Shown here: positions 4,574 through 44,582 of the stretch, one piece after another
Position numbering within the stretch: the first letter of the stretch is position 1
Layout of the letters: the number at the start of each line of letters is the position of its first letter
Assembly (NCBI GenBank): GCA_951406725.2
Contig: OX597817.1
Coordinates: 155,682,001 to 155,746,000 of the forward strand
Direction: 5' to 3'
DNA length: 64,000 bases
Source of the DNA: Octopus vulgaris
Lineage: Eukaryota
Program-made: the position numbers and the translations under genes
Notes under the pieces: generated by a model
What the model saw: only the letters and a program-made list of their open reading frames with translations
The model's database searches: none
Told to the model about the DNA's origin: nothing

Positions 4574-5778
4574 AAGCTTTTCTGAATTCAGCACATTCAG
4601 ACATAAAGGCTTTATCTTTTGAAGTGCAGTATGAGAATTCTGGCCATACTGCTCTTTTTTTATTTTTTTCAGCTGTCACTTTATCACTTTAGAAATGTTT
4701 TCACAAAAGAAAACCTGTAACTAAGAAGTTGTATGTGTCGTTCGACCTGCTAGAAATAGCAGTCAAATCTCATCCAGCCTTTCCTTCAAAACACACTTTA
4801 TCATCTTAAAATAACTTGTAAAGATATTTTAGATTTATCATTTGAAAGTAAGATGAGATGGTCATTGACCGGAATGCTTTGATCATAGACTGACTGAATC
4901 TGAGATTAACTTAGGATTAAACAACACCAATAACAACAATTTCTAAAGTCAGAAGGAAGAATTCCTGTCTAAGGTTTAATCAAGAAATATTTATTTATAT
5001 GAGATAAGTAGAATATATGAAATGTTTAATCATATAAATCATCAACAGGTTCTTACTACCATTGAATATGGGAGGAGAGTAGGATTTAAAGCTGGCATCT
5101 CAATTCAGTAAAATAGTTATCAATTATACAGTCTCCCTGTCATTTATTGCATTAAACTGCACCAGCCACCCTGAGGCACCTATTTATGCCTATGAGGATA
5201 GAATGTGGAATTGTAAAGTGGACATTGACCGCTTAGATGTAATTTCATAGCCTGCTATTGCTGCTATGAAATAGTTTGTATGAAAAATTAGGTAAGCTCG
5301 TCAAATACCTGTCTAATTGTGTTAATGAATACCTCATCTCTATCTTTGTTATTTACAAAATGACAACTTTCCATGTCAACTTAAATATTTTTGAGCAGTG
5401 GCTGAGTGATTAGACTGTTGAAACCTGGTGACTAGAAATATAAAATACCAAGTTCAAATCTGTCTTAGGTTTAACACAATCCTAGTCTAGGGTAGTCCTA
5501 GGGTGGTTTTAGCAAGCATGTCTGTGTGGTTAAGAAGTTCACTTCCCAATCATGTGATTTGGGGTTCAATCTCACTGCATGGTACCTTGGGCAAGAGTAT
5601 TTTTTTACTATATCCTCATATTGACCAATGCCTTGAGAAGGTAATTTGGTGAACAGAAACTGTATAGAAGGTATTATATAGAAATACATAATTGGTAAAA
5701 TGACTCTCTTTCACATTGTTTGTGTGCGCTCGCGTGCATATGTGTGTGCGTGTATTATGTATACATATATGATATAAT

Positions 5779-6065
5779 ATCATCATCATCATCGTTTAGC
5801 GTCTGCTTTCCATGCTGGAATGGGTTGGAAGTTCAACTGGGGTCTGGGAAGCCAGAAGGCTGCACTAGGCTCCAGTCTGATCTGGCAGTGTTTCTACGGC
5901 TGGATGCCCTTCCTAACGCCAACCACTCCATGAGTGTAGTGGGTGCTTTTTACGTGCCACCGGCACAGGTGCCAGACGAGTCTGGCAAACGGCCACGATC
6001 GGATGGTGCTTTTTATGTGCCACCGGCACGGGGGCCAGGCGAGGCTGGCAACGGCCACGAACGGA
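5779..6065 (-). mobile_element. RTE 3' end
   Basis: Matches 44583-45021; (GAT)n tail. Confidence 0.85.
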
Positions 6066-6241
6066 TATAAATGTATATTTAGATATGTATCATCATCATC
6101 ATCATCATCATCATTATCATCATCATCATATCATCATTTAACGTTGTTTTCCATGTACTAGCATTGTGTATATTAATTAATTTTAAAGTATTGAATAATT
6201 TAAGTATTGTTTTTAGTTTTCACTTAATGTATATTTAGTAT

Positions 6242-20587: not shown

Positions 20588-22041
20588 CCCCTTTCGTTAC
20601 TGTATTCATTTTGAGATGCTCTGTGTAAATATAACAAAGAATTTAGTAAAATAACTTAGTTATCATTCAGCTACTGCATAAATTGTGACTAAGGTTTGGT
20701 GGTATATTTTAATGAAGGCTTTGCCTTTCATCCTTTCGGGGTCGGTCGATAGTTTAAGTACCAGTTTCGCACTGGTGTCAATGTAATCGACTTAATACCT
20801 TTGTCTGTCCTTGTTTGTCCCCTCTATGTTTTAGCCCCCTGTGGGTAATAAAGAAATAGGTATATTTTAATGAAAAATGCTCTGTGTTTCTTTCAGTTAA
20901 TTGTAAATATAACAAAGAATTTAGTAAAATAACTTAGTTATCATTCAGCTACTGCTAGGATCATAAATTGTGACTAAGGTTTGGTGGTATATTTTAATGA
21001 AGGCTTTGCCTTTCATCCTTTCGGGGTCGGTCGATAATTTAAGTACCAGTTTCGCACTGGTGTCAATGTAATCGACTTAATACCTTTGTGTCTGTCCTTG
21101 TTTGTCCCCTCTATGTTTTAGCCCCCTGTGGGTAATAAAGAAATAGGTATATTTTAATGAAAAATGCTCTGTGTTTCTTTCAGTTAATTGTAAATATAAC
21201 AAAGAATTTAGTAAAATAACTTAGTTATCATTCAGCTACTGCTAGGATCATAAATTGTGACTAAGGTTTGGTGGTATATTTTAATGAAGGCTTTGCCTTT
21301 CATCCTTTCGGGGTCGGTCGATAATTTAAGTACCAGTTTCGCACTGGTGTCAATGTAATCGACTTAATACCTTTGTCTGTCCTTGTTTGTCCCCTCTATG
21401 TTTTAGCCCCCTGTGGGTAATAAAGAAATAGGTATATTTTAATGAAAAATGCTCTGTGTTTCTTTCAGTTAATTGTAAATATAACAAAGAATTTAGTAAA
21501 ATAACTTAGTTATCATTCAGCTACTGCTAGGATCATAAATTGTGACTAAGGTTTGGTGGTATATTTTAATGAAGGCTTTGCCTTTCATCCTTTCGGGGTC
21601 GATAAATTAAATACCAGTTTCGCACTGGGATCAATGTAATCGACTTAATACCTTTGTCTGTTCTTGTTTGTCCCCCTCTGTGTTTAGCTCCTTGTGGGTA
21701 ATAAAGAAATAGGTATATTTTAATGAAAAACTTATGAAAACAAGACATTTATACTACATTCAGCTAGGATCATAAATTGTGACTAAGGTTTGGTGGTATA
21801 TTTTAATGAAGGCTTTGCCTTTCATCCTTTCGGGGTCAGTCGATAAATTAAGTACCAGTTTCGCACTGGGGTCAATGTAATCGACTTAATACCTTTGTCT
21901 GTCCTTGTTTGTCCCCTCTATGTTTAGCCCCCTGAGGGTAATAAAGAAATAGGTGTATTTTAATGAGAAACTTATGAAAACAAGACATTTATACTACAGA
22001 GCCAGAGCCGGTTTTGGGCCGGGTTAGTATCAAAAGGGTTA
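20588..22041 (+). repeat. Tandem array (~285-bp unit, 5 SINE-B1 3' halves) inside a TTAA MITE
   Basis: Units start ~20617, 20877, 21164, 21449 and a partial one at ~21760; ends AAGGGTTAA. Confidence 0.9.
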
Positions 22042-26777: not shown

Positions 26778-26926
26778 AATTGTATATATATATATCAGCC
26801 GAAATTGCGAAGATGATCCGGTTCTTGACTGAAGATCGAAGGCTTCGAATGACCCGTCTGTTTTTTTGTATCGTCTTCTAAATGTTTTGCGTTCTTGTCC
26901 CAGTTTGTGTTTTTTTACATTTATCC

Positions 26927-27973: not shown

Positions 27974-28249
27974 TATGTGCCTTCGAAACATGGAGTAGAT
28001 GAAACAGGGACAACTGATGAAGGGGAATATTCTTTATGTTGCATGTCTCATTTCTCTGTTTGTTTTTTGCATTGTTCGAAAAAAAGGTTATTTTTATGTT
28101 ATCGTTTCTCATTGTGTTCAATGTTTTTTTGATGTCCTGTACCCTTATATGCATGCATATATACATATATATGTAGGTATGTTCATATATGTATGTATAT
28201 ATGCATATATTTATACATTATTTATATTATGTATGTATACATATATCAT

Positions 28250-36619: not shown

Positions 36620-36663
36620 ACAATGGAAAAACAGAGTACAGGACAAACAATACAAGGAAAATT

Positions 36664-36724
36664 CCCCTTCATCAGCTGCCCCTGGTTCGCCTCAATGTGT
36701 GTTTCAAAGGTAAGGGCAGAACAC
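36664..36724 (-). ncRNA. Hammerhead ribozyme motif, non-circularly permuted strand order
   Basis: GTGT-T cut site-CTGCCCTT-a-CCTTT-GAAACAC-15 nt-AGGGGCAG-CTGATGA-AGGGG; stems III 4 bp, I 8 bp, II 5 bp. Confidence 0.7.
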
Positions 36725-37304
36725 GACCTGGTCGAAGCAGTCCTTCCTGCAAAAGGAATTAAATAAAATTCTTTTGCAGAGGGGTAAGTATGCAAATGCA
36801 TACGATAAATGTTATCATTACATCCTGCTGGAATCGGCTGAGTCTTTCATCTGTCTCTGGGGATTGATTAAATACATACCAGCAATAAAACTATGGCTGG
36901 TTCATTCAATACTACTTTTTCCTTCCCAATTATAATTACTGATCAATATTCAATATTAAATATTTATAGATAATAAATTAAAACTGAAATAGACCATAAC
37001 CATTGATGAGGATTGAACCAGGTCAGACAACATCTGAACCTTAGTTTGAAAGAAGGGAATGTGATCTCCCTGAATTGTAAATGTTACCATCATCCATTAG
37101 TACACTGTAGATCAGTGTATTTTATTCATTTCTTAAACTGAATATCTGCCTACCTGCCTGCCTGCTAGTCTGTCTGTCTGTCTATCTATCTATTTATCTA
37201 TCTATCTATGTTTTTGTTTTTATGTTTTCGTTTCTCATTGTGTTTTTTTATGTTCTGTGCCCATATATGCATGCATATATACATATATTTGTAGGTATGT
37301 ACAT

Positions 37305-44107: not shown

Positions 44108-44424
44108 ACTAATAATGATAATAATAGTAATCATCCTCATCATCATCGTTTAACGTTCACTTTCCATGCTAGCATGCGTTGGACGATTTGACTGAGGTCT
44201 GACGAACCAGATGGCTGCACCAGACTTCAATCTGATCTGGCAGAGTTTCTACAGCTGGATGCCCTTCCTAACGCCAACCACTCCGAGAGTGTAGTGAGTG
44301 CTTTTATGTGCCACCAGCATGAGGGCCAAGGACCTTTCTGGACAAAAGGATATCATTATCATCAGCATCATCATCATTCTTCTTATTATTACTATTAATG
44401 ATAATAATAGTAATAATAAGAAGA

Positions 44425-44456
<32 letters not shown>

Positions 44457-44582
44457 ATCCTTTTGTCCAGAAAGGTCCTGAATAATGAGGACAGTACAGA
44501 GGCAAGATACAAAGAGAGAAAGTGAAAAAGAATAGAAAGAAAAAGAGCAAGAAGCAATGGGGTTATATTTAGTTATATTGAG

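Follow-up and report, generated by a model that had tools for sequence, protein, structure and literature searches.

Type SGC hammerhead ribozymes (HRIMA-1; Eckert, Friedrich, Weinberg and Weinberg, 2023, PMC10085705) carry their conserved blocks in the order cut site (S), GAAA (G), and CUGAUGA (C), cross directly from stem I to stem II, have a doubly pseudoknotted core, and are 60–100 nt long. A motif with the same order and core words, and with the same predicted crossover, core topology, and size, is located on the minus strand of the 64-kb stretch of Octopus vulgaris DNA that was analysed here (the window). The linker from stem I to stem II is typically 3 nt in the published type and 1–2 nt in the octopus repeat family that contains the motif (family A). 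The published SGC sequences come from metatranscriptomes and metagenomes, and the accessible part of that paper names none from known organisms' genomes apart from one bacterial GCS candidate, whereas the octopus motif occurs in thousands of copies in animal DNA. It also differs in having an extra A after CUGAUGA, a G-U-rich stem II, a helix between leader and linker, and no supported helix between stems I and II. The extra A is excluded by the SGC descriptors of Eckert et al. (CUGAUGAG and CUGAUGAUG); therefore, family A, which reads CUGAUGAAG, could not match them. In the literature covered, reports of the rearranged form are limited to environmental sequence and a single weak bacterial candidate. 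A preliminary description of this DNA had referred to rare reports of such permutations in other eukaryotes, but none was found in the literature covered; the accessible part of Eckert et al. gives none from eukaryotic genomes, and reports from Xenopus and Agaricus were not found. Likewise, permuted hammerheads from animals or Penelope-like elements were not reported in this body of literature, which included few subscription papers.

Minimal type I hammerheads (Cervera and de la Pena, 2014, PMC4209133) are similarly located near the 3′ end of Penelope-like repeats, contain an extra nucleotide before G10.1 as well as the G10.1-C11.1 pair, and form many families per genome. However, these are circular in order (C-G-S), their palindromic stem III is very small, and their core remains with the 5′ product, whereas the octopus motif is non-circular, has a full stem III, and would keep its core on the reverse-transcribed 3′ product. 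Elements of the Naiad clade (Craig et al., 2021, PMC8557442) share with family A 5′ truncation, partial tandems, inverted 5′ copies, an optional tail, and (TA)n targets; in contrast, family A has no reading frame, and among the loci examined it was seen linked neither to a reverse transcriptase (RT) nor to a Naiad RT frame with an N-terminal GIY-YIG. Animal non-LTR retrozymes (Cervera and de la Pena, 2020, PMC7229834; bioRxiv 10.64898/2026.07.22.740005) are also non-coding, hammerhead-bearing, and arranged in tandem units, and have been proposed as non-autonomous partners of Penelope-like elements. Retrozymes measure 170–400 nt, carry type I hammerheads, and have demonstrated circular RNAs, whereas the octopus units measure 830–843 nt and are mostly dispersed and truncated. 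Four contig-level runs of presumed RNA origin contain the family, but they carry no information on RNA ends, strand, or level and were given no weight as evidence.

A scanner for all six block orders returned a single complete hammerhead in the window, the motif at 36664–36724, with the order S-G-C; the circular orders CGS, GSC, and SCG (types I–III) were found by the same scanner neither in the window nor in 90 loci. Reading along the minus strand, block S starts with the 5′ strand of stem III, which ends in U16.1 (36721) and is followed by H17, a U at 36720 (36720–36724; sequence and covariation). The scissile bond is predicted between 36720 and 36719, by analogy with known hammerheads and from the best change point of copy 5′ ends at −1. 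After the cut, the stem I strand occupies 36712–36719, and four of its eight pairs show changes on both sides in an alignment of related rows (A2, below). The crossover and the stem II strand of block G follow at 36706–36711 (scanner and family comparison), and then the GAAA core (36705–36702) with the stem III partner strand (36699–36705), which is invariant in 22/22 aligned motifs that were selected for it. Block C comprises the stem I partner strand (36676–36683; covariation), the CUGAUGA catalytic core (36669–36675), and an extra A with a G-rich stem II strand from G10.1 onward (36664–36668). Thus, CUGAUGA, GAAA, and UH were all present where the preliminary description had placed them, and the permuted S1-S3-S2 order that it proposed is real and equals the published type SGC. 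Its 1-nt crossover also held, as a single A (36711) in the window copy and 1–2 nt in family A.

Stem I is formed by 36719–36712 with 36683–36676 (eight pairs, including one G-U), and stem III has five pairs in most family A copies and four in the window copy, which has A for G at 36698; a 15-nt linker separates the stem III and stem I partner strands. The lengths given earlier for these two stems (8 and 4 bp) were in register, but the 5-bp stem II was not, because the A-U pair with which it started depends on a T at 36706 that is specific to the window copy. The commonest base at this position, where C11.1 stands in most copies, is C (23 family copies), and the T is likely to reflect CpG decay in the window copy, which has three substitutions in the motif. 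With C at 36706, stem II consists of an extra A after CUGAUGA and then four pairs (G-C, G-U, G-U, and G-C). The two hairpins described upstream of the motif fold as claimed. The 13-bp hairpin (36747–36779, minus strand) is stable (−11.5 kcal/mol, z −5.8, 0/200 shuffles as good), and folds of nine family representatives placed a hairpin of unlike sequence at approximately the same upstream position in other families. The 4-bp hairpin (36724–36734) is weak and was matched by 17/200 shuffles.

No hammerhead was matched at the motif by a local Rfam scan, which is expected because the Rfam hammerhead models have circular order, and a whole-window scan gave only microsatellite-type matches among the matches listed (150 of 299). 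The nested folding energy of the motif was no better than that of shuffles (z +0.29). This result agrees with an accidental combination of core words within a single repeat family that was spread by transposition, and copy number alone proves nothing against such an origin. However, nested folding is uninformative on this motif because the core is doubly pseudoknotted. In total, 182 distinct G-then-C word pairs from the collected loci were clustered on the G–C region alone, leaving block S unused. Nineteen families were obtained: 14 of the 17 clusters with at least two members, and five more assembled from nine singletons that looked like members on inspection by eye. Family H received a tenth singleton, and clusters L097, L114, and window-12275 were left out as unrelated. 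Real and permuted pairings were scored by one best-offset rule. When stems III and I were paired with their own block S, 8.2/10 positions were Watson-Crick pairs, as compared to 4.5 ± 0.45 after permutation (0/20,000), a count that, like the other permutation counts given here, overstates significance because the families are kin and the copies are not fully independent. Swapping block S across family groups reduced pairing over stems III and I to 3.8/10, and three stem III positions each showed at least three different Watson-Crick pair types. Two families paired poorly (3/10 and 4/10), both with few members, and the automatic offset of one of these, A3, was off by one. Spacings across the 19 families were narrow: the distance from U16.1 to GAAA was 15–18 nt, and that from GAAA to CUGA was 27–30 nt, within the 26–32 nt filter applied.

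Block S in a MAFFT alignment (A1) was out of register between families of different spacing; block-anchored columns and a subset of 12 related rows (A2) were used instead. In A2, 93% of cells were paired, with 22 changes on both sides (0/500 shuffles), whereas slid registers paired 42–60% of cells. Stems I and III covary and pair in a family-specific manner, which extends to 19 families the covariation that the preliminary description had noted between two motifs. Compensatory changes of this kind, together with the 5′-end edge described below and the same block order in distant Naiad families, argue against a chance arrangement, which we consider very improbable.

Stem II is less regular. Its commonest reading, G10.1-C11.1 after the extra base followed by G-U-rich pairs, was found in 14/19 families and was lacking in the other 5/19; in the B and E families, this stem II is absent or shifted in register. 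Across families, stem II paired at 3.3/4 positions against 2.8 after permutation (23/20,000, best of three registers), and it had no changes on both sides in A2. The duplex energy of the active register in family A is about zero, and a shifted pairing that ties up G8 and A9 (−4.6 kcal/mol) beats it. A downstream hairpin (36642–36681, minus strand, −8.9 kcal/mol), which is also part of the nested minimum-energy fold and would sequester block C, is likewise more stable. Because stem II is weak, folding in the cell would probably be protein-assisted. The weakness or absence of stem II in the B and E families and the strong competing folds would also suit a real but non-cleaving fold, that is, a hammerhead-derived structure for protein binding or pausing, in which the edge in copy 5′ ends would come from a transcription start, a protein nuclease, or RT stalling. 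On the other hand, the core words are conserved even between families whose stems differ along their entire length.

A fourth helix is predicted between a leader strand (36731–36740, minus strand) and a strand of the G-to-C linker that overlaps the far end of stem I (36682–36691, minus strand; duplex energies). This leader:linker helix is family-specific, with −6.4 kcal/mol for own-family duplexes against −4.8 kcal/mol for permuted ones (0/20,000), as computed without 21 rows that carried an inverted-copy artefact. A helix between the free sides of stems I and II was unsupported (−4.65 vs. −4.18 kcal/mol, 1552/20,000). Such a I–II helix is needed by SGC-3, was seen in HRIMA-1, and was ignored by the authors' search descriptor (PMC10085705); its lack of support separates the family motif from HRIMA-1 itself. 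A second core variant was seen in families E and E4 (L063, L120, L140, and L092), in which stem II seems to start directly after CUGANGA, with two unpaired C residues ahead of GAAA; by eye, this variant also occurs in a Naiad consensus from the Morbakka region of the published file.

Family A, to which the motif belongs, is a non-coding Penelope-like repeat, and the window copy of it covers 168 nt (36620–36787, minus strand; local alignment to L002 and L019). The start of this copy is 68 nt upstream of the predicted cut, and the copy breaks off prematurely in a (CA)n tract. A first look for relatives of the motif region gave 2303 candidates; 40 of these were scored, and all but the window copy itself (39) were 94–96% identical. 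The tandem unit is 830 nt in family A (L012) and 843 nt in a sister family (L120), and the relatives include 5′-truncated copies, partial tandems, and inverted partners (an inverted partner at 3/60 loci and a direct tandem partner at 1/60). Most copies finish in (TA)n, and some have a short additional tail; TA-type repeats precede 21 of 36 copies whose 5′ ends pile up at the motif. Family A therefore has the traits of a non-autonomous Penelope-like element (5′ truncation, partial tandems, inverted 5′ copies, microsatellite targets, and an optional tail), and the same traits are given for Penelope-like elements by Craig et al. (2021). No RT or endonuclease motif was seen within the unit. A tRNA-derived SINE was considered, and no tRNA was found in 5/5 long-copy loci, in which decayed heads could escape detection. 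A non-LTR retrozyme with one type I hammerhead per unit was rejected because the tandem units in L012 and L120 carry type SGC instead. At the family A tandem junctions in L012 and L019, the unit 3′ end contains a GTAAGT splice-donor-like word, followed across the junction by a long pyrimidine tract that ends in CAG; this arrangement could be a Penelope pseudo-LTR intron. Short inverted pairs, almost head to head, occur in L344, L348, L062, and L135, and both arms of these pairs start at, or at most about 20 nt after, the predicted cut.

If the RNA is cut before reverse transcription, then copies cannot reach 5′ of the cut. Since the S-G-C order keeps the core with the 3′ product that is copied, the boundaries of copies in the genome can reveal where the cut was made; no report of such a reading was found in the literature covered. 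Set 1 was drawn from 959 exact matches to a 28-mer located 153 nt downstream of the predicted cut and comprised the first 70 of them. Ten of these copies ended at +152 to +30 (none at +30 to +62), 36 at +29 to −1, none at −2 to −55, and 24 further upstream, which corresponds to rates of 0.13% per nt, 2.7% per nt, and 0 in 1296 nt for the first three intervals. The difference between 31 nt on each side is significant (P = 1.4e-7), the change point fits best at −1, a position at which the TA target can contribute one extra T, and the edge is within 1 nt of the bond that was predicted before counting. Of the templates copied as far as the motif, 36/60 (approximately 60%) look cut, and the window copy, which starts at −68, had an uncut template. 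Set 2 consisted of 92 copies anchored inside the motif, taken from the first 90 of 309 matches, and at least eight of these were also in set 1. In set 2, 41 copies ended at 0 to +21, six at −1 to −6, and two at −7 to −69; 4/92 started 4–6 nt before the cut, one of which is an internal deletion by eye, and apparent ends near −70 to −125 were mostly alignment breaks at homopolymers. A third set of 30 loci from mixed families excluded one ordinary type I motif and three loci without a close reference; 13 of the 26 evaluable copies started at +15 to −3, one at −12, and 12 at −53 or beyond.

These ends bear on the non-cleaving fold. An edge within 1 nt of a previously predicted bond is not what this reading leads one to expect, and RT stalling in particular is disfavoured by the lack of ends at +30 to +62, where block C and stem I would first be encountered, and by the occurrence of only two ends at the stable 13-bp hairpin. 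On the other hand, 15 Naiad copies showed no sharp 5′ edge (three start after the cut and three at −21 to −30), which fits a fold that does not cleave. The same can be said of the Poseidon element, in which hammerhead cleavage needed protein and was dispensable for insertion in vitro, and in which no RNA-seq ends were found at the hammerhead site, according to the accessible part of the report (PMC11167929). As cleavage was not needed for insertion of Poseidon, cutting may shape the RNA without being essential. Taken together, we regard the non-cleaving fold as rather improbable. The best explanation is that the 36664 motif belongs to a decayed copy of a non-coding Penelope-like retroelement with a single-strand type SGC hammerhead that likely cut at 36720/36719 in the source element, and we hold this to be probably correct. 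Self-cleavage in the animal is likely, as suggested by paired changes across families and by the positions at which copies start, and the in vitro cleavage of published type SGC constructs (0.007–0.19 per min; PMC10085705) supports this reading by analogy.

Under the single-strand cleavage reading, stem I would cross directly into stem II, and a linker of 13–18 nt would run from stem III back to stem I, so that the usual core of three helices would be restored in doubly pseudoknotted form. Cleavage after H17 would then leave GAAA and CUGAUGA on a 3′ product beginning at position 1.1. A Penelope-type RT, most likely of the Naiad clade, may act in trans to copy this product into (TA)n sites, and its drop-off within the last 30 nt would yield the many "half-core" copies. 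In tandem transcripts, cut-to-cut processing would release an 830-nt monomer. The preliminary description had named activity through tandem copies in a standard type III fold as a route to refutation; this route is closed, as every rotation of the order (SGC, GCS, and CSG) is non-circular and the copies are spaced 830 nt apart. A separate alternative is that the RNA cuts at the same site only as a dimer of two molecules that exchange strands, the block S of the one pairing with block G or C of the other, like minimal Penelope hammerheads. Metazoan Penelope hammerheads have been reported as low-activity dimers (PMC4209133), block G of families A, C, and F contains a 6-nt palindrome, tandem and inverted copies exist, and the 5′-end edge fits any oligomeric state. 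However, stem III of family A has five non-palindromic pairs, unlike the 1–2 bp helix that forces dimers, both linker lengths are kept, which suits a monomer, published SGC constructs cleave co-transcriptionally in cis assays (PMC10085705), and tandem neighbours are uncommon (1/60 loci) and 830 nt away. These features make an obligate dimer unlikely, if somewhat less so than the non-cleaving fold.

Naiad elements are said to lack canonical hammerheads, and eight of their families, including one from Octopus and one from Euprymna, were marked as "half core" in the accessible material (PMC8557442). By eye, the published 3′ ends of the Obim and Ovul Naiads have the S-G-C layout, in which stems III, I, and II measure 5, 6, and 2 bp, respectively, and the stem I of these Octopus 3′ ends is nearly identical to that of the repeat motif. 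A 19-nt motif from the same ends gave 327 genome matches against 0 for the control. A sister S-G-C motif is located 0.9–1.1 kb behind Naiad-type RT remnants (RVT_1 match, below the curated cut-off) in 3/6 loci (L189, L190, and L192), and the layout also occurs downstream in 7/20 more distant RT loci, one of them partial. A genome search with a degenerate Naiad RT pattern gave eight forward matches and no reverse matches. The Naiad partner of family A is inferred from the shared layout, the similar stem I, and the TA target. A C-terminal-endonuclease family was also considered as the partner and was rejected, as it carries an ordinary type I motif (2/25 loci; L194). Locus L106 contains a 375-aa Penelope-like frame (5022–6146, minus strand) with an RT end, a CxxC linker, and GIY-YIG at the C terminus, and a type I-like motif occurs approximately 0.7 kb downstream of the GIY-YIG.

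In the accessible file of 54 published Naiad consensus sequences, at least 15 had SGC or CSG forms by eye; this is a lower bound that covers core-word matches at places 21–50 of 62, 7–36 of 43, 1–15 of 23, and 1–15 of 25, and several arthropod matches that were not parsed by eye are outside the count. The S-G-C order was found in nine consensus sequences, several without stem II: two from Octopus, three from Acropora, and four others that were placed only by file position (Clytia, Morbakka or the next entry, and Darwinula). A clean C-S-G order (type CSG) was found in six (three Nippostrongylus, Haemonchus, and two unassigned). The two types are rotations of one another and have the stem I to stem II crossover in common. 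In the Naiad from the Darwinula region (Craig et al., 2021, supplement), a seemingly whole hairpin is inserted between CUGAUGA and stem II, by eye. On balance, we lean slightly toward a broader proposal, according to which the ribozyme that seemed "missing" from Naiads and their non-coding partners across animal phyla is a non-circular hammerhead, of type SGC here and in cnidarians and ostracods and of type CSG in nematodes. Under this proposal, this genome alone contains more than ten thousand such hammerheads, which use a fourth helix that is new and whose in vivo cleavage has left a fossil trace in the 5′ ends of genomic copies. If true, thousands of copies in many covarying families would turn non-circular permutation from an exotic feature into a common one and would give structural studies a source of natural variants. 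The proposal also offers a testable answer to why Naiad elements seemed hammerhead-free and bears on the role of Penelope hammerheads in the cell.

The genome (2.8 Gb) is rich in microsatellites. Genome-wide, the pattern CGAAA, 19–31 nt, CUGAWGAAG had 11,634 matches against 429 for the reversed control, a count of blocks G and C only that includes many copies without block S. The ordinary hammerhead order had 17,308 matches against 724 for the control, and the two orders coexist in this genome. The strict scanner, applied to 40 unselected 10-kb stretches (400 kb), gave one match against 0.2 in shuffles, and this match was outside the families, which would also agree with a chance origin; the low yield is attributed to the small sample and to the decay or truncation of most copies. 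The window contains three further members, all on the plus strand. One is complete, a family B S-G-C motif (235–297; scanner and family comparison) in which stems III and I pair with other sequences and stem II is poor. The others are truncated, namely a family C copy that starts approximately 8 nt after the predicted cut and lacks block S (27979–28025; scanner), and a family E-like copy directly behind (TA)n that starts approximately 9–10 nt after the predicted cut (26794–26840; by-eye comparison with E copies). One ordinary-order hammerhead-core family, for example at C1:688682-689005, dominates the 17,308 matches and often occurs in inverted pairs 100–400 nt apart. Elsewhere in the window, a common dispersed repeat makes up tandem arrays at 20624–21998, with units of 285 nt (3.9 copies, 96%) and 240 nt, and a long hairpin is present at 44334–44474, in which a perfect inverted repeat of approximately 22 bp encloses an ATC/ATT microsatellite and where a miRNA model scored below its gathering threshold.
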